From assembly GCA_964579435.1 (NCBI GenBank), contig CAZOGI010000001.1, positions 157,907-221,906 of the forward strand: a stretch of 64,000 bases of DNA, read 5' to 3'. Source of the stretch: an uncultured Planctomycetales bacterium (GTDB lineage: Bacteria > Omnitrophota > Gorgyraeia > Gygaellales > Profunditerraquicolaceae). The notes beneath the pieces are model-generated. The model was not told the DNA's origin. It saw only the letters and a list, made by a program, of their open reading frames with translations, and did not search any database. Positions 27,175 to 53,541 of the stretch are shown one piece after another (within the stretch, counting starts at the first letter, position 1; every line of letters begins with the position of its first letter). The translations under genes and the position numbers were made by a program.

Positions 27175-27353
27175 AAAAAAAATCCCCGCCTGTGCCGTTG
27201 TAGCCTGGTGGGCTGTGAACCTTCCGGTTACACGTGGGTGCCCGCTCCGCAGGCACGCATGCGCCGCGGAAGAGAGGCTCCCTTTTTTTTGGTGTTGGCT
27301 CACCAATCACCAGGCTCTTGAACGAACACTGCAGGGACTCTTTTCTGCTGCAC
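27175..27353 (-). ncRNA. ssrS: Candidate 6S RNA (about 180 nt)
   Basis: It lies between a consensus sigma70 promoter and a U8 tract. Its 5' segment (27336-27308) pairs with its 3' segment (27210-27184) as a long closing stem. Both strands of the roughly 25/25-nt central bubble can form small hairpins. There is an imperfect 15-bp apical stem (27282-27236). It sits upstream of the ygfA homologue. Confidence 0.5.
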
Positions 27354-38481: not shown

Positions 38482-38558
38482 TGGTGGGCCCATGAGGACT
38501 CGAACCTCAGACCTTCACGATGTCAACGTGACGCTCTAACCAACTGAGCTATGAGCCC
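38482..38558 (-). tRNA. tRNA-Val (GAC), CCA encoded
   Basis: Hand fold: GGGCTCA/TGGGCCC acceptor, anticodon loop TTGACAT, T-loop TTCGAGT, 3' ACCA. Confidence 0.9.
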
Positions 38559-38583
38559 AACAACCGCTTGATTCCGTCTCAAA

Positions 38584-38666
38584 TGGGCAAGGAGGGATTC
38601 GAACCCTCACAGCCGTGAGGCCAACAGATTTTAAGTCTGTCGTGTATGCCATTCCACCACTTGCCC
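38584..38666 (-). tRNA. tRNA-Leu (TAA), class II with a long variable arm, no encoded CCA
   Basis: GGGCAAG/CTTGCCC acceptor, anticodon stem ACAGA/TCTGT, loop CTTAAAA, 15-nt variable arm, T-arm GAGGG-TTCGAAT-CCCTC. Confidence 0.85.
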
Positions 38667-38729
38667 GCAGCTTTTCTTCGCACCCGTTAGCGCGCGCGCC
38701 CTCCCTGCCGGTGCGCACGGGAGTGGGAA

Positions 38730-38804
38730 TGGAGGCGGCAAGCGGAATCGAACCGCTGGATAACTGTTTTGCAGACAGTTGCCTTGCCACTTGGCTATGC
38801 CGCC
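38730..38804 (-). tRNA. tRNA-Cys (GCA), CCA encoded
   Basis: GGCGGCA/TGCCGCC acceptor, anticodon stem ACTGT/ACAGT, loop CTGCAAA, T-loop TTCGATT. Confidence 0.9.
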
Positions 38805-39373: not shown

Positions 39374-39578
39374 CTTTTGCCTTCTTACAGCTGACTTTGC
39401 CTTCAGCAATTTCATGCAGGGCGATAGTGGAGGGCTTGGTGGTGCTATTGATTTCAACCAGCTTCGGTTGCCCTTCCGCAATCTCCAATGCGCGCTTGGA
39501 GGCGAGTACCACTAATTTATAAATCGAATCGTTGCTTCTGTCCAACAGCCTCTCAAGCGGAACATAATTTATAAGCAT
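39363..39578 (-). CDS. rpoZ: RNA polymerase omega subunit
   Basis: SIYKLVVLASKRALEI; 71 aa; conserved gmk-rpoZ-coaBC neighbourhood. Confidence 0.85.
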   Translation of the reverse strand: MLINYVPLERLLDRSNDSIYKLVVLASKRALEIAEGQPKLVEINSTTKPSTIALHEIAEGKVSCKKAKGAA

Positions 39579-39599
39579 GTCTCTCCCTAAAATGTAACC

Positions 39600-40202
39600 C
39601 TATGTCTTAAAATGCGATACATTGCTGCGAATAATTTTTTTGAGCTCTTGGATAGCCAGCGCCAAGCGGTCATTAATCAGAAGGTAGTCAAATTTCCTGG
39701 CGCGACGCATCTCCTGCCTGGCCAATGCCAGCCGCTGGCCGATCTCGCGCGCCGCCGTTTCCCGTTTACGCGCGCCAATGCGCTTCGCCAAAACCTCCTC
39801 TGAAGGCGCGCCCACCAATATCGAAACGGTCTCCCGGGGAAAAGCTCGCTTAACCTGCCGAACCCCCCGATAATCGAGACAAAGGATCAGGTTGCGGCCG
39901 CGCGCCAGCTGCTGCTGCACAAACGCGCGCGGAGTTCCGTAATAATACCCCAAATACCTGGTCCATTCAAGAATTTTTTTCGCTTTCTGCAGAGCGCGGA
40001 AGCGTTGCGCAGAGACAAAAAAATAATCCCTCCCTTCGCGCTCGCCCGCCCGCCGCGGCCGCGTGGTGCACGAAACCGAACGCCTGAGGCATTTTTTCGC
40101 CTGCGGATCCCGCAGGATACGCCGCGCCAGGGTCGTCTTGCCTGACCCTGAAGGGCCGGAAAGGATGAAAAGTCGTCCGCTCAGGGGTACGGGGGATTTC
40201 AC
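39600..40202 (-). CDS. gmk: Guanylate kinase
   Basis: ILSGPSGSGKTTL P-loop, TTRPRRAGEREGRDYFFV; GTG start at 40202. Confidence 0.9.
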   Translation of the reverse strand: MKSPVPLSGRLFILSGPSGSGKTTLARRILRDPQAKKCLRRSVSCTTRPRRAGEREGRDYFFVSAQRFRALQKAKKILEWTRYLGYYYGTPRAFVQQQLARGRNLILCLDYRGVRQVKRAFPRETVSILVGAPSEEVLAKRIGARKRETAAREIGQRLALARQEMRRARKFDYLLINDRLALAIQELKKIIRSNVSHFKT

Positions 40203-41026: not shown

Positions 41027-41526
41027 TCCCACGTCTCCACGGTTCGCTCGCGCTCAACCGCCTTTTTCGTCCGGTACAGTGGCACGATAATCTCCTCCGG
41101 CGAAAACCAGAGTTTGATCTCCCGCTCCGCCTCTTTCTCGTCCGAAGAAACATGAATGACGTTTTCGTATACCCCCGAGGTGGTAATCCGGCCATAAGAG
41201 CCGCGGATACTGGTTGACTCCGCCTCCTCCGGATTCGTGGCGCCGGCCAGCTCTCGGCACTTGCGGATCGCCTCTTTCCCCCAATACACCAGCGCCATAA
41301 CCTTACGGCGATCGTGCAGCTCCCCCTGCAAATACCGCAGCAGCTCTTCGAAAAACGGCTTATCCCGCAGATGACAGTAGTGCGCCGAGGCCAACTCCCG
41401 GGAGACGCGGACCATTTTTGCGCCGACGATCTCCAGTTTCGTCTCCGAAAGACGGGTGAGAATATTGCCCGTCAACGATTTTTTGAGCCCGTCGGGCTTG
41501 ATGAGAATAAGGACCGCCTGATTCAT
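41023..41526 (-). CDS. ndk: Nucleoside diphosphate kinase-like protein with a C-terminal extension
   Basis: LILIKPDG, FFEELLRYL and NVIHVSSD (active-site His context). Confidence 0.8.
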   Translation of the reverse strand: MNQAVLILIKPDGLKKSLTGNILTRLSETKLEIVGAKMVRVSRELASAHYCHLRDKPFFEELLRYLQGELHDRRKVMALVYWGKEAIRKCRELAGATNPEEAESTSIRGSYGRITTSGVYENVIHVSSDEKEAEREIKLWFSPEEIIVPLYRTKKAVERERTVETWE

Positions 41527-41530
41527 TGCA

Positions 41531-42391
41531 TTACCCCCCTGCCATTTTGTCGACGAGCCGAGACAGGTCGTCGGGAGAGTAGAATTCTATCGCGATCTCC
41601 CCCCTCTTTTTACGTCTCGTAATGCGGACCTTGGTTCCCAATGCCTGCTGAAGCCGCTCCTCCGCCGCAACCAGCGACGGATCCTTGCCGGCGAGGGAGC
41701 GTATGCGCTGCCGGACCGCGCGCGGCGAGCGCCGGCGCAGGAGCGTCTCGAGCTCCCGCACCGACAACGCCTTGATGACCGCCTCGTGTGCAAGACGCCG
41801 CTGCAGGTGCGGATCATCCAGTTCCAGGAGTGCCCTGCCATGCGCAAAACTCAGGCGGCCGCCGCGGATATCCTCCTGCACCTCTGCGGGCAGATTCAAC
41901 AGCCGCAGGGTATTGGCAACGCTCGCGCGCGCCTTGCCCAGCACCACACTGATACGTTCCTGAGTGATCTGGAACTTATCGATGAGGTATTGGTACGCGC
42001 GCGCCTCTTCGATCGCGTTGAGATCCTGACGCTGGATGTTTTCGATAAGCGCGATCTCCAGCGCTTCCTGGTCGTTTGCCTCTTTCAAAAGAACCGGGAT
42101 TTCGCTCAATTGCAGATGCTGTGCGGCGCGGAACCGTCGTTCACCGGCGATCAACTCGAATATATCGCCCTTCTTGCGCGCGACAACCGGTTGGATAACT
42201 CCCTTTTCTTTGATCGACTGTATCAATTCCTGCATCCGCACCGGATCAAAATCCTCCCGCGGCTGCAGCGGATTCGGCCGCACCTGCTCGATCTTGGCAA
42301 GGATAACCGCTCCGCTTTCTTCTTGCAAAGATGCCCGCTCAGGTAACAACGCACTCAATCCCTTTCCTAAAGCTCGTTTTTCCATCCGCAT
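41531..42391 (-). CDS. parB: Chromosome partitioning protein ParB/Spo0J
   Basis: LGKGLSALL, PNPLQPREDFD, IAGERRFRAA and an HTH region. Confidence 0.9.
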   Translation of the reverse strand: MRMEKRALGKGLSALLPERASLQEESGAVILAKIEQVRPNPLQPREDFDPVRMQELIQSIKEKGVIQPVVARKKGDIFELIAGERRFRAAQHLQLSEIPVLLKEANDQEALEIALIENIQRQDLNAIEEARAYQYLIDKFQITQERISVVLGKARASVANTLRLLNLPAEVQEDIRGGRLSFAHGRALLELDDPHLQRRLAHEAVIKALSVRELETLLRRRSPRAVRQRIRSLAGKDPSLVAAEERLQQALGTKVRITRRKKRGEIAIEFYSPDDLSRLVDKMAGG

Positions 42392-42393
42392 CC

Positions 42394-43200
42394 TCAGCTA
42401 TTTATGGTTCCCGAAGAATTATCCAGACTGAAATCTGGCTTGGGTATTCCTAAAATCTCGCAGGCAAGCTCTTCATACTTTTGAGCGCCTAATGAATCCT
42501 TGTCATACAAAGAGATTGGTTTGCCGTAACTCGGTGCCTCTGTTAATCTTATGTTTCTTGGAATGACTGTTTTATAAACTTTTTCTCTAAAATACCCTCG
42601 CACCTCTTGAATAACTTCTTTGGTAAGATTTGTCCGGAAATCGGCCATAGTTAAAAGGACCCCTTCAATTTCCAGTCCGGGGTTGAGTGTTTCACGAACC
42701 AGCTTGACGGTATTCATCAGCTGCGTCAATCCTTCTAACGCATAATATTCGCACTGAACGGGAATGATAAGCGAGTCTGCCGCACAGAGCGCATTGATCG
42801 TCAGTAACCCCAGCGATGGCGGCGAATCGATGATCACGAAATCGAAATTGTTCTTTTCCTCGACAAGCGAGCGCTTCAGCTTATACTCGCGCCCCAGAGC
42901 TCCGACGAGCTCAACCTCTGCGCCGGTCAGGTCAAGATTTGCCGGCGCCACAAAGAAATTCGGGACCGCGGTTTCAACAACAACCCCCGCCAGCTTCTCC
43001 TCCTCCAAGAGAATATGGTATGTACTCTTCTTTACATCGTGCCGATTAATGCCTGCGCCGCTCGTTGCATTTGCCTGGGGGTCAAGGTCGATCAACAGAA
43101 CCCGCTTTTGCGCGCGCGCCAGATAGGCGGAAAGATTGATTGAAGTTGTCGTTTTCCCTGTTCCACCCTTCTGGTTGCAGATTGAAATTACCTTACCCAT
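42394..43200 (-). CDS. parA: Chromosome partitioning ATPase ParA/Soj
   Basis: Deviant Walker A NQKGGTGKTTTSINL, with IIDSPPSLG. Confidence 0.92.
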   Translation of the reverse strand: MGKVISICNQKGGTGKTTTSINLSAYLARAQKRVLLIDLDPQANATSGAGINRHDVKKSTYHILLEEEKLAGVVVETAVPNFFVAPANLDLTGAEVELVGALGREYKLKRSLVEEKNNFDFVIIDSPPSLGLLTINALCAADSLIIPVQCEYYALEGLTQLMNTVKLVRETLNPGLEIEGVLLTMADFRTNLTKEVIQEVRGYFREKVYKTVIPRNIRLTEAPSYGKPISLYDKDSLGAQKYEELACEILGIPKPDFSLDNSSGTINS

Positions 43201-43222
43201 TTAATTTCAAATAGTTACAAAT

Positions 43223-43238
43223 TGTTCCACGCGGAACA
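43223..43238. promoter_or_regulatory. parS-like 16-bp imperfect palindrome
   Basis: TGTTCCACGCGGAACA matches the consensus tGTTTCACGTGAAACa at 13/16 positions and lies 23 nt upstream of the parA start. Confidence 0.45.
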
Positions 43239-43273
43239 TTTTGATTGCCCTTGATTCTTTATCTATTGTCCTT

Positions 43274-43501
43274 TTATTTTGCCGGCTTGTCAAGTTTTTT
43301 GTCTGCTGCCGGAACTACGCTTACCCTTACCTTGGCTGGCTTTGCCCCCGCCATACCAAATAGCCCTCTTTCTTCCTCGCTAAGCACTTCTATCTTCACT
43401 TGCTTACGCGGGACCTTGAGCGCAACCAGGGCTTTATTAATAGCGTCCTCGAGATTTTTACCCTCAACCTCGATACTTTGAAATTCTTTATGCGGGGACA
43501 T
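43274..43501 (-). CDS. Jag/KhpB N-terminal-domain-only protein (75 aa)
   Basis: IEVEGKNLEDAINKALVALKVPRKQVKIEVLSEEERGLFG matches the Jag_N pattern. It sits in the canonical position after yidC. I place the start at ATG 43501. No KH or R3H domains are present. Confidence 0.6.
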   Translation of the reverse strand: MSPHKEFQSIEVEGKNLEDAINKALVALKVPRKQVKIEVLSEEERGLFGMAGAKPAKVRVSVVPAADKKLDKPAK

Positions 43502-45023
43502 TCTTGTACACTCTCGCTTGATAAATAAGCATGAGAAGGCTATTCGTGATCCAGTACAAAACAAGTCCGGAGGGAACGCGGTAAAACGCCATTCCAAAAA
43601 TTATCGGCATTAAGAAAAGCATCATCTTCTGCTGTTCATTGGCTCCAGCGGTTTTACTCATGGATATCTTCTGTTGAAAGAACATCGCAAGAGCCATGAG
43701 GATTGGTAATAAATTAATTTCGTTGCCTAAAAGCGGGAGGTGATTGGGCAAAAGCGCAATCCGGTCAGGCTCGGAAAGATCCTTAATCCAGAAAAACTCC
43801 GCACCTTTTAACGCAATAGAGCGAGGAAGCAGTTGAAGGAAGGCAACAAAAACGGGCATTTGCAATAACAGCGGCAAGCAGCCGCCCAAGGGATTGACTT
43901 TATGCTCCCGAAATAACTTCATTTGTTCTTGCTGAAATTTCTGGGGATTATCCTTATACAACTTCCTTAACTCTTCGAGTCGAGGTTGAATCATTTGCAT
44001 CTCTTTCATCGACTTTGTTTGCTTTATGGTCAATGGAAATAGCGCTATAAAAATTGTGCATGAAACGCCAATGATGGCCCATCCCCAGTTATTGAATAAC
44101 CTGTGGAAAAACTCAAGCAATTGAAGCAAAATTTGTGATATAAAATCAAAGGTTCCAAAATGAATAATCGACGCATACTCGGGATCAGCTTCTGAAAGCA
44201 GCTTTATAATCTGTGGGCCGGCAAATAATTTCAAATTTAACGCCTTCTTTTCTCCTGGTTTTAGCTCCATCAACGACTGCGGACTAAACGTCACCACAGA
44301 AACATTTTTATCCGGACGCGAGATTGATCCGTTAATTTTTACTGAATCATCAGATTGGACAATTAAAGCATAATATCTTGTTTTGAAAGCAATGAAGTCA
44401 ACATCTTTAAAGTCTGCCTTCTTTGAAGGAGCATAGGTAGTTGTATTATTTTTTTCCCTACTCACCACAACACTACTATATTGTAAATCGCTTGCCCCCT
44501 GCTTCAAATCAAAACTTCCCAGAACAACTGGAAAATTTACCGTACGAACATTACTTCCAATATTCTCAACTTCAAATTTAAGATTTCCTTGAACACTATT
44601 CTTAAAAGATAGAATCCTTTTAATTCTAAATTCTCTATCTTCACTAACCGAAATAATGGAATTATTAATTAAATTAGATTCACTAATAATAAAATTATTA
44701 TTAAACCCAACTATTTCTAAGGCATTAAATAACAACATGTTACCACCACCAAAAACTTTTCCAAACTTCAACTCAAACAATGACCCGGTTAAGCCATTAA
44801 ATACCGCCTTAAAATGTCCAAAGTTAAATTCCTTTTTGGACATTTCTTTAACATTTTGCAGATCGTTCTTTTTTATTTCTGGCGGGAGGATTTCTTTTGA
44901 AGACAGCGGCTCTTGTTCAGATCGCAGAAGGAGCGGGGACGGCTGTTGCTTTGGCAAAACGGACGACCAAATAAACAATACCACCGCTGACAAGAAAATA
45001 GCCAAAATCAGTCTTTTTTCCAT
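43488..45023 (-). CDS. yidC: Membrane protein insertase YidC
   Basis: N-terminal TM helix, a large periplasmic domain, and the conserved C-terminal core (NPLGGCLPLLLQMPVF..., LPILMA, VPSGLVLYW). Confidence 0.92.
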   Translation of the reverse strand: MEKRLILAIFLSAVVLFIWSSVLPKQQPSPLLLRSEQEPLSSKEILPPEIKKNDLQNVKEMSKKEFNFGHFKAVFNGLTGSLFELKFGKVFGGGNMLLFNALEIVGFNNNFIISESNLINNSIISVSEDREFRIKRILSFKNSVQGNLKFEVENIGSNVRTVNFPVVLGSFDLKQGASDLQYSSVVVSREKNNTTTYAPSKKADFKDVDFIAFKTRYYALIVQSDDSVKINGSISRPDKNVSVVTFSPQSLMELKPGEKKALNLKLFAGPQIIKLLSEADPEYASIIHFGTFDFISQILLQLLEFFHRLFNNWGWAIIGVSCTIFIALFPLTIKQTKSMKEMQMIQPRLEELRKLYKDNPQKFQQEQMKLFREHKVNPLGGCLPLLLQMPVFVAFLQLLPRSIALKGAEFFWIKDLSEPDRIALLPNHLPLLGNEINLLPILMALAMFFQQKISMSKTAGANEQQKMMLFLMPIIFGMAFYRVPSGLVLYWITNSLLMLIYQARVYKNVPA

Positions 45024-45039
45024 TGTTTGCCTTTATGCG

Positions 45040-45255
45040 CTAATGAGGCGGATCATAGAGTGGGCCGCGGGTAAAAGGATGGCACCGCAAAATGCGCCGG
45101 CAGGCTTTTAAGCCGCCACACCAAAAACCCCACCGGGAAATCGATTCCTTCGCATACTCCGAACAACTGGGGATATAACGACAGCTGGGCGGCAGGAGCC
45201 CGCGGAAAAACCGCTGATACGTCGCAAGGAACAAAAGCGCTATCCGTCGGCCCAT
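45040..45255 (-). CDS. yidD: Membrane protein insertion efficiency factor YidD
   Basis: CRYIPSCSEYAKESI...RILRCHPF..GPLYDPP. Confidence 0.9.
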   Translation of the reverse strand: MGRRIALLFLATYQRFFRGLLPPSCRYIPSCSEYAKESISRWGFWCGGLKACRRILRCHPFTRGPLYDPPH

Positions 45256-45393
45256 TTAAGCCGCCAGGCGCTTTCTGCCCTTTTTCCGACGACGGGCGAT
45301 CAATTGCCTCCCGGTGCGCGTGCTCATCCTCGCCCGAAAACCATGCTTGCGTTTTGCGACGATCTTGGTCGGCGTCTTCAGATTTTTTTTCAT
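45256..45393 (-). CDS. rpmH: 50S ribosomal protein L34 (45 aa)
   Basis: Hand translation gives [56 protein letters not shown] lies upstream. It is below the ORF-track cutoff. The stop TAA abuts the yidD ATG. Confidence 0.9.
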
Positions 45394-45566
45394 TTTGCTC
45401 TCCCTCGGTAAGTGGCAACTCCGTCGAATTGGGATAAATTATAACACATTGTTATCTCAAGTCAACACTAAATGTTTCGACTCTAGAAAAATCTGCAAAG
45501 CAAAACCCCGATGGGATTTTCTCGGGCGGCGCAAAACACAGAAGGGACTGTCGTTTCAATTTTATG

Positions 45567-45594
45567 TTGACTTCCCGAAAAGGGGCTGTATAAT
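45567..45594 (+). promoter_or_regulatory. Candidate sigma70 promoter for dnaA
   Basis: TTGACT (45567-45572), a 16-nt spacer, then TATAAT (45589-45594), about 95 nt upstream of the dnaA ATG. Confidence 0.45.
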
Positions 45595-45639
45595 AATCAA
45601 ACGATTTTAAAATACCTGTCCTTTTTAGCCTGACAAAAT

Positions 45640-45690
45640 CTTTCCACAGAGTTATTCAGTTTGTTGATAAACTGTGGATTCTGTGCACAT
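45640..45690. promoter_or_regulatory. Cluster of three DnaA-box-like 9-mers
   Basis: CTTTCCACA (45640-45648), TGTGGATTC (45673-45681, reverse complement GAATCCACA) and palindromic TGTGCACA (45682-45689). Each matches TTATNCACA at 7/9. Confidence 0.35.
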
Positions 45691-47038
45691 GAACACACAA
45701 GACCTTTCTCTTATATGGAATACCGTCCGGGATACGCTGCGGGAAAAGCTCGGCGAGACGGTCTTTGAAACCTGGATAGCGCCCCTCCAGTGCAAAAACC
45801 AGTCGAAAGAGACGGTAACCATTGAAGCCCCCGATATATTTTTCTGCGAATGGATAGAGAAACACTACAAACTTGCTCTTTCACAAGCCTTCGGAAGCGT
45901 CACCAAAAGCCAACCTTCGGTCCTCCTGGAGGTAAGCGGGCAGACGCCACGACCGACCATCCCAGCGCCGGAAACCGCGCCGGCACCTCCAGAGAGCGCC
46001 TTCGAGCCGCATGAACGCGCCGGGCTGAACCCCCGCTATACATTCGACAATTTCGTGATCGGACCTTCCAACCGCCATGCACACGCCTATTCCCTCGCCG
46101 TCGCCGAATCCCCGGCAAAGTCGTACAACCCCCTTTTCATCTACGGGGGAGTGGGGTTGGGCAAAACGCACCTGATGCAGGCGATCTGCCACCACATCCG
46201 GCAAAAAAACGGGCCGCAGACAAAGATCTGCTATACCTCATCGGAAAAATTCATGAATGAGTTGATTTTGGCGATCAAGGACCGCTCGACGCACGAGTTC
46301 CGGCAAAAGTATCGCGGCCTTGACGTGCTCGTGATCGACGACGTACATTTCTTTGCCGGCCGGGAGGCAACCCAGGAAGAGTTCTTTCACACCTTCAACG
46401 CGCTCTACGACGAACACAAACAGATCATCATGTCTTCCGACCGTCCACCCCGGGAAATCGCCAACTTACAGGATCGCCTGGTATCTCGTTTCGGTTGGGG
46501 GCTGGCCACGGATATCCAGCCGCCCGACATGGAAACGCGCGTGGCGATACTCAAGAAAAAGATCGAGCGCGAACCCGTCCAGGTCCCCGACGATGTTTTG
46601 TTCTTTATCGCTCAACTTATCCGCACCAATATCCGCGAACTGGAAGGTGCCCTGGTCCGTACGATCGCGTATGCGCTGCTCGAAGAAGAGCCGATCACGC
46701 TGGGGTTGGCAAAACATGTTTTAAAGGATCTCCTCAAAGAACCCAAAAAATTGATCACTGTCGACTTTATTCAACGCTGTGTCGCCGAAGAATTCGGGAT
46801 ATCTCTCTACGACCTCAAAACGAAGCGCCGCACCCGCACCATTGTATTGCCGCGACAGATCGCCATGTATTTGAGCCGGGAGTTGACCGATTTATCTTTT
46901 CCGGAAATTGGCGGTTTTTTTGGGGGGAAAGACCATACGACGGTTTTGCATGCGTGTAACAAAATCAAGGAAGTGGTACGTACGGATGAGGTTTTACAAA
47001 GGCAAATTGAACACATTATCACGGTTATTAAACAATGA
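45689..47038 (+). CDS. dnaA: Chromosomal replication initiator DnaA
   Basis: Walker A GGVGLGKTHL, a box VII/sensor region, and the C-terminal DNA-binding domain (R..IVLPRQIAMYLSRELT..S.PEIG..FGGKDHTTVLHA). I prefer ATG 45689 over GTG 45674. Confidence 0.93.
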   Translation: MNTQDLSLIWNTVRDTLREKLGETVFETWIAPLQCKNQSKETVTIEAPDIFFCEWIEKHYKLALSQAFGSVTKSQPSVLLEVSGQTPRPTIPAPETAPAPPESAFEPHERAGLNPRYTFDNFVIGPSNRHAHAYSLAVAESPAKSYNPLFIYGGVGLGKTHLMQAICHHIRQKNGPQTKICYTSSEKFMNELILAIKDRSTHEFRQKYRGLDVLVIDDVHFFAGREATQEEFFHTFNALYDEHKQIIMSSDRPPREIANLQDRLVSRFGWGLATDIQPPDMETRVAILKKKIEREPVQVPDDVLFFIAQLIRTNIRELEGALVRTIAYALLEEEPITLGLAKHVLKDLLKEPKKLITVDFIQRCVAEEFGISLYDLKTKRRTRTIVLPRQIAMYLSRELTDLSFPEIGGFFGGKDHTTVLHACNKIKEVVRTDEVLQRQIEHIITVIKQ

Positions 47039-47047
47039 TTGCAGGGG

Positions 47048-47170
47048 GTATACACAGTCCTTTTTTGTGGTAACTTTTTTAATAGGTGTGAGATCGGAGG
47101 TTTTAAACAGGAATGTAACCGCATTACTATAATACGATTACTATTTTTTTAAAATTACTTATTAATAGTA
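47048..47170. other. Candidate oriC element: DnaA boxes plus an AT-rich unwinding region in the dnaA-dnaN spacer
   Basis: GTATACACA (47048-47056) matches at 8/9 and TGTGGTAAC (47066-47074) at 6/9. An AT-rich stretch then carries three ATTACTWAT repeats (47123-47130, 47137-47144, 47154-47162). Confidence 0.45.
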
Positions 47171-47185
47171 GAAAAGGAGTGGTTG

Positions 47186-48277
47186 ATGAAAATTAAGGCG
47201 AACAAAGAACAATTACTAACCGGAATTCAAACGGTATTAAATGTCATCAGTCCAAAATCTGCTTTACCAATTCTTTCTAATATACTCTTGGAGACGCAAA
47301 CCGATACACTGCGTTTAACCGCCACAGATCTTGATATTGGTATAAGCTGTGAAATAGCGGTGAATAACCAGGAGTCAGGGTCAATAACCGTTCCGGCCAA
47401 GCGATTTTATGAAATTATCCGGGAGTTGCCTGCGGATGAGGCAGTTATTACCTCGAAAAAGAATAATCAGGTCCATATAGAAACGACGACCTGTCAATTT
47501 AAAATTATGGGCCTGGCGCGGGAAGAATTCCCCCGACTCCCGGAATTTAAAGACCGCAATGTTGTTTCTTTGGATCAGGATTTAATGAAACACATGCTTC
47601 ACCTGACCGCTTTTGCCGTATCAAACGATGAGTCGCGGTATATCCTCAATGGGATCTTGGTGCAACTTTCAAAAAACACCGTGAGTATGGTGGCAACCGA
47701 CGGAAAGCGGCTGGCGGTGATTGAGCAAAAGACAAAGAAGGGGAGCGAAAAACCCATTTCTTTTATCGTTCCCAGCAAAACCATTCAGGAGCTCAACCGT
47801 AATTTGGGTGACACCGGGGAGGTATCGTTTATTTTGGGGAACAACCAGGTGCTGTTCGACCTGGGCAAGGTGATCATTATTTCCCGCCTCATAGAAGGGG
47901 AATTCCCCGATTATAAACAGGTTATGCCGCCGGCATCGGAGCAGAAGATTAAGGTGGATCGCGAGGCGCTTCTCTTGGCGGTACGCCGCGCGGCGCTCTT
48001 GTCGACGGTCGATTACCAGGCGGTGAAGTGGGAGGTGTTCAAGAATAAACTGGTTATTTCCAAGTCGACCCCGGATATCGGGGAGTCGCGGGAAGAGTTG
48101 GCCGTCGACTATGCCGGGAAGGAGATGATCATCGGTTTTAATCCGAATTATCTGACCGATGTTTTGAAGAATCTGCAGCATCAACTCGTCGAATTCGAGG
48201 TGACGGACAGCGAAAAACCGGGCGTGGTGCGGACCGACGGGTATACGTATATCGTTCTACCGATGCGTCTCGGATAG
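47186..48277 (+). CDS. dnaN: DNA polymerase III beta sliding clamp
   Basis: Three-domain clamp pattern (LSNILLE, ATDGKRLAV, GFNPNYL). SD GGAG lies 6 nt upstream of ATG 47186. Confidence 0.93.
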   Translation: MKIKANKEQLLTGIQTVLNVISPKSALPILSNILLETQTDTLRLTATDLDIGISCEIAVNNQESGSITVPAKRFYEIIRELPADEAVITSKKNNQVHIETTTCQFKIMGLAREEFPRLPEFKDRNVVSLDQDLMKHMLHLTAFAVSNDESRYILNGILVQLSKNTVSMVATDGKRLAVIEQKTKKGSEKPISFIVPSKTIQELNRNLGDTGEVSFILGNNQVLFDLGKVIIISRLIEGEFPDYKQVMPPASEQKIKVDREALLLAVRRAALLSTVDYQAVKWEVFKNKLVISKSTPDIGESREELAVDYAGKEMIIGFNPNYLTDVLKNLQHQLVEFEVTDSEKPGVVRTDGYTYIVLPMRLG

Positions 48278-48285
48278 GGCGTCGC

Positions 48286-51025
<2,740 letters not shown>

Positions 51026-53466: not shown

Positions 53467-53541
53467 GTCCCCATCGTCTAGCCTGGTCTAGGACAAGAGC
53501 TTTTCAAGCTCTCGACCGGGGTTCAAATCCCCGTGGGGACA
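53467..53541 (+). tRNA. tRNA-Glu (TTC), no encoded CCA
   Basis: GTCCCCA/TGGGGAC acceptor, anticodon stem AGAGC/GCTCT, loop TTTTCAA, T-arm CGGGG-TTCAAAT-CCCCG. Confidence 0.9.

Follow-up and report, generated by a model that had tools for sequence, protein, structure and literature searches.

When an abrupt AT-rich anomaly turns up in a GC-rich bacterial genome, it is as a rule taken for foreign DNA or for misassembly, and the question raised here is what to make of one that runs across core genes beside the replication origin. It lies in a 64,000-nucleotide stretch (hereafter the window, whose numbering is used throughout) of contig CAZOGI010000001.1 from an uncultured bacterium, where the minus-strand genes parA, jag and yidC together form a block of low G+C content (GC) at 42394-45023. 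The closest relatives of the DnaA protein encoded nearby come from Candidatus Omnitrophota genomes (63-69% identity in full-length matches), and the origin regions of those genomes have a GC of 30-51%. We report that the block is probably native and vertically inherited, and that it belongs to a set of family-conserved patches, smaller than genes, that lie near the origin (oriC) and the parS site and would stand close to an AT-biased mutational equilibrium. The patches form a cluster no more than ~5 kb from oriC and around the parS centromere, an arrangement that is conserved across a family of Candidatus Omnitrophota.

The GC of 42394-45023 is 0.418, against a mean of 0.613 (SD 0.015, minimum 0.582) for 2630-nucleotide windows taken outside 42-51.5 kb, which places it ~13 standard deviations (SD) below segments of the same size elsewhere in the window. 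Thus, the AT-rich block described in a first-pass annotation of this DNA is real; the counts given there (G+C of 47/60 at 41701-41760 and 15/60 at 44581-44640) are exact, and the abrupt change placed at the parB/parA junction is borne out by a fall in 200-nucleotide GC from 0.56 (42100-42299) to 0.385 (42400-42599). The lowest 200-nucleotide value, 0.245, occurs at 44551. What did not survive is the picture of a single sharp block: its GC is low, but it is inhomogeneous, with mid-parA at 0.55-0.565, and the depression extends past 45023 as far as gyrB. The whole is better described as a patchy trough at 42.3-50.7 kb, around oriC (the dnaA-dnaN spacer) and a conserved parS. Its AT-rich patches comprise the 3' third of parA together with jag and yidC, the 3' end of dnaA together with the 5' half of dnaN, and gyrB codons ~500-660. 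Five patches are found in a 9-kb section around oriC and parS; the remaining 55 kb of the window contain no such patch. At third codon positions (GC3), the patches have values of 0.08-0.5 versus a background of ~0.77; for whole genes, GC3 is 0.40 in yidC, 0.52 in parA and 0.58 in dnaN, while nearly all long open reading frames of the other 55 kb, of any function, have values of ~0.70-0.83. Other stretches stay near the background, namely parB, rpmH-yidD, the mildly depressed body of dnaA, and gyrA. Background composition is seen in parB (except for its first ~25 codons), in gyrB codons 1-500 and in gyrA, and the GC3 drop is much weaker in mid-parA, rpmH-yidD and the dnaA body than in the patches.

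On the minus strand, Pfam identifies parB, parA, jag, yidC, yidD and rpmH, and on the plus strand dnaA, dnaN, dciA, gyrB and gyrA. Next to parB (41531-42391, minus) lies parA (42394-43200, minus), the 3' third of which (codons ~151-268; 42394-42750) is the first patch, with a GC3 of 0.24-0.52 versus 0.64-0.72 in mid-parA. Codons 181-240 have a GC3 of only 0.30-0.37 despite an amino-acid identity of ~0.8. The AT-rich jag gene (43274-43501, minus; GC3 0.47) encodes 75 amino acids that match Pfam Jag_N (E = 3e-20). Typical Jag/KhpB proteins carry KH and R3H domains as well; here the Jag_N domain stands alone, as it also does in the sister species. The trough is deepest in yidC (43488-45023, minus), which has a GC of 0.38 and its minimum in the periplasmic-domain codons 31-330 (44034-44933); GC3 is 0.08-0.30 over codons 101-225, with 0.08 in one 25-codon bin. 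Upstream of it, yidD (45040-45255, minus; Pfam YidD) and rpmH (45256-45393, minus; Pfam Ribosomal_L34) have a GC of 0.58-0.59 in 150-nucleotide bins, in the window and the sister alike. It may be added that yidD and yidC come straight after rpmH, with no rnpA at its usual spot between rpmH and yidD/yidC.

On the other side, an AT-rich spacer between rpmH and dnaA (45394-45673; GC 0.39-0.44) leads to dnaA (45674-47038, plus), the body of which has a GC3 of 0.67 and follows the flanks across the family with a slope of 1.07. Its 3' patch consists of the last ~35 codons (46934-47038), and over the last 34 of them GC3 is 0.41. Beyond the dnaA-dnaN spacer (47039-47182; GC 0.29-0.31), dnaN opens with a patch over its 5' half (codons 1-150; 47183-47632, plus), where GC3 is 0.43 versus 0.69 in codons 151-364; sister contig L160 shows the same 5' patch. 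The onset of the gyrB patch (codons ~501-660; 50066-50545, plus) is abrupt: GC3 falls from 0.88 in codons 476-500 to 0.36 in codons 501-525, and lies between 0.24 and 0.56 across codons 501-650.

Could such a mosaic have arisen in the computer? A chimeric assembly or a binning artefact joining high-GC and low-GC populations was among the explanations offered in the first-pass annotation, and the window is indeed a metagenome-assembled contig in which conserved genes, where assemblers can cross between populations, are involved. Independent contigs from Logan argue otherwise. Two of them, both from the single run SRR12133403, are 100% identical to the window over 41122-43345 and 43396-47118. 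Contig breaks occur at 43346-43395 and 47118; the parB/parA junction and the yidC-dnaA region are both bridged. A sister species, found through its YidC (85% identical) and DnaN (99% identical), is represented by contigs from ERR14964780, a different sample and project. These run unbroken and colinear along 42214-46399 (nucleotides 88.5% identical) and 46466-48578 (92.1% identical), and their 150-nucleotide GC profiles follow that of the window with r = 0.958 and 0.978. With the same mosaic present in dozens of independently assembled relatives, a chimera is rejected, and we regard an artefact of this kind as scarcely credible.

The relatives show the same patches. A 12-gene block, gmk-yicC-ndk-parB-parA-jag-yidC / dnaA-dnaN-dciA-gyrB-gyrA, is syntenic in ~40 Omnitrophota species, and its GC-rich genes are as Omnitrophota-like as its AT-rich ones (identities of ~82% for GyrA, ~79% for Ndk and ~58% for ParB). 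Depending on the patch, GC3 is lower than in the flanks in 28-38 of 32-38 related species: in 32/33 for the 3' third of parA, 30/35 for jag, 35/35 for yidC, 38/38 for the last 34 codons of dnaA, 38/38 for dnaN codons 1-150, and 28/32 for gyrB codons 571-660. A GyrB homologue search returned no full-length sister sequence, so the gyrB patch is confirmed at the family level only. Across species, patch GC3 rises with flank GC3 at slopes of only 0.31-0.56 (0.50 for yidC; 0.56 for the 5' half of dnaN versus 0.93 for its 3' half). In eleven mid-GC relatives, flank GC3 is mostly ~0.55-0.70 (lower in parB, ~0.5-0.6), and the corresponding values are 0.40-0.52 for parA and mostly 0.37-0.55 for yidC, with 0.35-0.41 over dnaN codons 1-60 and 0.37-0.41 over gyrB codons 601-660. 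In a rough tree, the GC-richer lineages are scattered among GC-poor ones. Its recurrence in related species that were sampled independently marks the pattern as inherited, rather than as foreign DNA or an assembly error.

This bears directly on recombinational replacement from a low-GC relative, the other event-based explanation in the first-pass annotation, taken here to include repeated introgression. The abrupt borders within conserved genes are what import might leave, patch composition equals the family mean, and the dinucleotide signature lies slightly outside the background (delta* 0.094 vs 0.050 ± 0.015, z = 3), with most biases shared. No donor signal emerged, however. In a search of 5.8 billion proteins, the best YidC matches after the window itself and the 85% sister were at most 49% identical; a scan of metagenome contigs with YidC gave distant relatives only (at most 38% identity) and no further close lineage. 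Exact-protein look-ups for GyrB and ParB returned no record. Patches and flanks of the window do not differ in their amino-acid identity to low-GC or to mid-GC relatives, and the same patches are low in the sister and in ~30 or more other species (~30-38 by the patch counts). Moreover, since the family shows saturation at synonymous sites, any import of long standing would by now have taken on the composition of its host. We therefore hold import to be very improbable. The annotation's remark that this is not a cargo island stands. The block consists of core genes, keeps their conserved order and lies at the origin, and neither mobility genes nor flanking repeats were found at the trough. The nearest tRNA genes lie at 38.5-38.8 kb (a three-tRNA cluster, 38485-38804, minus) and at 53.5 kb (one tRNA, 53467-53541, plus, just downstream of gyrA). 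Low-GC islands and other horizontally acquired DNA share with the trough a sharp compositional anomaly and shifted codon and amino-acid usage; unlike them, the trough has core genes in conserved order, no mobility genes, integration borders or donor, and a counterpart in relatives. Because the anomaly is made of essential, syntenic and vertically inherited genes, the default reading as foreign DNA or misassembly fails.

How, then, did the patches come to differ from their surroundings? Relative to the family mean, the flanks of this lineage have gained GC, by +0.13 to +0.30 in GC3 (+0.19 to +0.30 without gmk, which accounts for the +0.13) and by +0.02 to +0.11 at first and second codon positions (GC12). 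In the patches, the corresponding differences are -0.06 to +0.07 and ~0. Within parA, GC3 is +0.02 in the 3' third and +0.24 in codons 1-150; within gyrB, it is -0.05 in the patch and +0.30 in codons 31-500; in yidC, GC3 is -0.06 and GC12 is -0.02. The patches took no part in the GC rise of this lineage, and they stand out here because the lineage became unusually GC-rich. Nor are they frozen relics. At four-fold degenerate sites, the patches differ from the sister at 78/231 positions (0.338) versus 106/490 (0.216) outside (Fisher p = 7e-4), and the greatest divergence from the sister is in the deepest patch (27% over 44614-44763). Within the trough, GC-to-AT differences (145) and AT-to-GC differences (134) balance each other. 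Fast synonymous turnover, balanced differences and the same composition in the sister together imply that the patches hold a lower, stable GC.

Uniform GC3 (~0.70-0.83) whatever the function of the gene fits a genome-wide force acting at the DNA level, and we suggest that the rest of the genome may be driven towards GC by a fixation bias. The patches would then be near an AT-biased equilibrium because this bias is weak or absent there. Such an exemption predicts faster, neutral-like evolution, as is seen in the patches, and their faster synonymous turnover points to a GC-favouring fixation bias on the remainder of the genome. AT-biased mutation is said to have been established for bacteria by Hershberg and Petrov in 2010, and is presumed for this lineage. 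As to the nature of the GC-raising force, it may be GC-biased gene conversion (gBGC), with the patches as putatively recombination-cold segments; lower GC3 than in neighbouring core sequence combined with faster synonymous turnover is expected of a region exempt from gBGC. Escape from gBGC is the proximate cause that we tentatively prefer, with direct selection for AT a close second.

Direct selection would keep the patch DNA AT-rich near oriC and the centromere, possibly for easy melting, for absorption of supercoils, or as a platform for nucleoid, ParB or DnaA-type proteins, with coding sequence accommodating AT where protein constraints allow; we rate it as a possible though less likely cause. 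It would account for the confinement of the five patches to 9 kb around oriC and parS, for positions kept family-wide in lineages with apparently separate GC shifts, for the conserved parS inside the trough, and for low GC3 even in conserved protein segments such as parA codons 181-240. The 3' third of parA also suits it, since four-fold divergence from the sister is low there, 7/48 versus 24/78 over the remainder of parA. Some constraint may be embedded in this segment, for example parB expression signals or a DNA site. At four-fold sites, however, most patches change more quickly than their flanks, the reverse of what purifying selection on sequence would produce, and synonymous conservation is at flank level in every patch but for one stretch of gyrB. 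As to sequence-specific elements, consensus DnaA boxes number 5 versus 1.85 in local shuffles, a marginal enrichment (P ~0.05) with no significant clustering, and with up to 2 mismatches the count is 32 versus 24.3 (P = 0.06). AA/TT periodicity, as would be expected of A-tracts, is not above background, repeats within 42.3-51.1 kb are short, low-identity matches that form no family and of which none is outstanding, and Rfam finds no family in the trough. Moreover, rpmH-yidD and the dnaA body are nearer to oriC than yidC, yet are not AT-rich.

A local mutational regime, in which origin DNA is more often single-stranded, or differently replicated or repaired, and so suffers more GC-to-AT mutation, would explain why the patches lie at the origin, why their four-fold divergence is higher and why all three codon positions are affected. 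In the yidC periplasmic-domain region and the gyrB patch, third positions of the coding strand also show a stronger depletion of C than of G. We nevertheless consider it unlikely, as the trough is a mosaic with sharp borders inside genes (near gyrB codon ~500 and parA codon ~150) rather than a gradient, it leaves out the dnaA body and rpmH-yidD, strand skews are not consistently stronger in patches than in flanks, and nothing similar is seen in other phyla, where the high-GC origin loci of Acidobacteriota and Firmicutes show a single 500-nucleotide dip upstream of dnaA only. The suggestion in the first-pass annotation of a different pressure beside the origin survives in a general sense; one block or a smooth gradient does not, as what is found is a family-conserved mosaic of sub-gene patches. 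Less likely still is selection at the codon level, whether as a weaker pressure for GC-ending codons at low expression or as slow A/T-ending codons that pace folding or membrane insertion. The patches do coincide with particular protein segments, and the deepest one encodes the translocated periplasmic domain of YidC. But first and second codon positions are also exempt from the GC rise, the spacers belong to the trough, low-GC relatives, in which A/T-ending codons prevail, nevertheless have lower values in the patches, and other variable or lysine/glutamate-rich segments keep a high GC3. The uniformity of GC3 elsewhere, which extends to ribosomal protein L20 and to a pair of membrane proteins (0.76-0.77), indicates that neither membrane proteins nor an expression class is at issue, and the membrane-protein effect was ruled out on that ground. 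A related idea, that AT-richness merely follows fast-evolving protein segments, was also discarded: variable segments of yicC, the dnaA linker, dciA and parB keep a high GC3, while conserved segments of parA and dnaN have a low one.

Several points weigh against a native, family-conserved mosaic released from a GC-favouring bias. The limits of the patches were set on the window, and the Wilcoxon p-values are overstated because the relatives are not phylogenetically independent of one another. A published survey (PMC11879095) places the peak of recombination near the origin as a rule, which tells against a cold spot there, and a local AT-biased hypermutation would likewise speed synonymous divergence. 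As rpmH-yidD and the dnaA body interrupt the trough, distance from oriC or parS is no simple explanation. The slow parA 3' patch (7/48) may be under a different, sequence-specific constraint, and in relatives the gyrB patch is partly accounted for by a stretch conserved at the nucleotide level. Finally, the analysis covers 64 kb of the genome, and similar patches could exist elsewhere.

The gyrB stretch in question comprises codons 615-645 (50408-50500, plus) and occupies the same place in 32 relatives (L004-L042). Two purine-rich motifs, AAAAAGGGAGT and AAGACCAAAAAA.TGCC.ATTTATAGGGTAAAAGTGGAGGG, are nearly invariant, four-fold positions included, and with the window counted in, particular synonymous codons recur almost without exception (GGA in 33/33, ACC in 32/32, AGG in 28/29 and GTG in 29/30). 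Identity at four-fold third positions is 0.49 versus 0.256 expected. Conserved stops follow in both alternative frames right after an A7 run, and the AGGG-N5-GTG arrangement could be an internal start. RNAalifold predicts no structure for the stretch (-0.35 kcal/mol), and there is no Rfam match. The window's own copy is partly diverged. In some relatives, GyrB proteins of 1251-1258 amino acids (P0220, P0221 and P0236) carry an intein after EGDSAGG; GyrB of the window has none. Co-conversion during intein homing was rejected as the cause of the conserved stretch, for the intein follows residue 448, ~170 codons upstream.

Candidates are at hand for both sites around which the patches cluster. 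Gene orientation is divergent, cumulative GC skew has its minimum at ~46.7-47.0 kb, and this turn of the skew makes the dnaA-dnaN spacer the likely origin, with its unwinding region putatively in the same spacer. An A/T run with ATTACT repeats at 47128-47175, almost identical in sister contig L160, is a candidate unwinding element, and DnaA-box-like words (TTTCCACA, TTATCAACA and TGTGGAT) occur at 45641-45680, just upstream of dnaA. In the jag-parA spacer, the palindrome TGTTCCACGCGGAACA (43223-43238), a putative centromere, is the sole match in the window to TGTTNCACGTGAAACA at up to 3 mismatches. With up to 2 mismatches, a parS match lies between or beside jag and parA in sister contig L083 and 13 relatives, two being labelled jag/yidC; the carriers recorded are L083, L005, L008, L011, L013, L021, L023, L024 (two copies), L025, L027, L029, L034 and L036. 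Thus, as in a ParABS system, a parS palindrome adjoins parAB and is kept in relatives, and the palindrome is likely to be the chromosomal centromere, situated inside the AT-rich trough.

Some features outside the trough may be recorded here. A short dip at 39400-39700 (GC 0.40), upstream of gmk, holds the lowest 200-nucleotide GC outside the origin region and is probably an intergenic promoter region. In gmk itself, codons 75-89 (39936-39980) form an A/T-ending run (CTT GAA TGG ... TAT TAT TAC) in which codon choice is kept family-wide; its retention in this GC-rich genome produces a local dip in GC3. A 6S RNA gene lies at 27179-27340 (minus; 61 bits).

Each of several known systems resembles the trough in part. 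Bacterial oriC regions of the dnaA-dnaN type, with their unwinding elements and DnaA boxes, have in common with it the GC-skew switch, the position beside dnaA and dnaN, the AT-rich spacers, the DnaA-box-like words and the A/T run. Known unwinding elements, however, are tens of bases long and non-coding; here the AT-richness is on the kilobase scale, in discrete patches within five essential genes and up to 4.7 kb away, where high-GC origins of other phyla have one 500-nucleotide dip. The GC3 heterogeneity that Lassalle et al. reportedly ascribed in 2015 to bacterial gBGC is similar in that synonymous GC differs between neighbouring core segments, and in that the AT-rich state here behaves as the less constrained one. 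The gene-level GC3 effects in that study and in recombination-landscape work are said to be far smaller than the 30-45 points seen here. Unlike those reports, the present pattern is at a sub-gene scale, conserved in a family, and located at the origin. The origin is also where, by PMC11879095, recombination usually peaks. In Xylella fastidiosa, a slight AT enrichment of replication and translation genes is reported (PMC8495750), so that there, too, core genes of replication surpass the genome in AT content; the effect here, unlike that one, amounts to tens of points and is restricted to parts of genes. The literature that was searched contained no description of such a pattern.

For practical work, patches of this kind could lead to broken contigs and get metagenome-assembled genomes flagged for binning or contamination, and they can mislead island finders based on GC. 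For biology, they amount to a natural experiment on whether bacterial GC is set by mutation bias, selection or biased gene conversion, since a single operon contains adjacent stretches with a GC3 of ~0.8 and ~0.2 that have history, strand and expression setting in common, a contrast found again in dozens of related species of differing genomic GC. It is possible, though we put it forward with reserve, that conserved patches in essential genes near origin and centromere have a composition uncoupled from that of the genome, through either exemption from gBGC or an architectural role. If exemption is the cause, GC content in these bacteria would be set by a fixation bias against AT-biased mutation. 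If the role is architectural, kilobase-scale AT-rich DNA around oriC and parS would matter structurally. Either way, the patches would add to chromosome organisation a feature not described before, and this rare high-GC lineage would show it most clearly.

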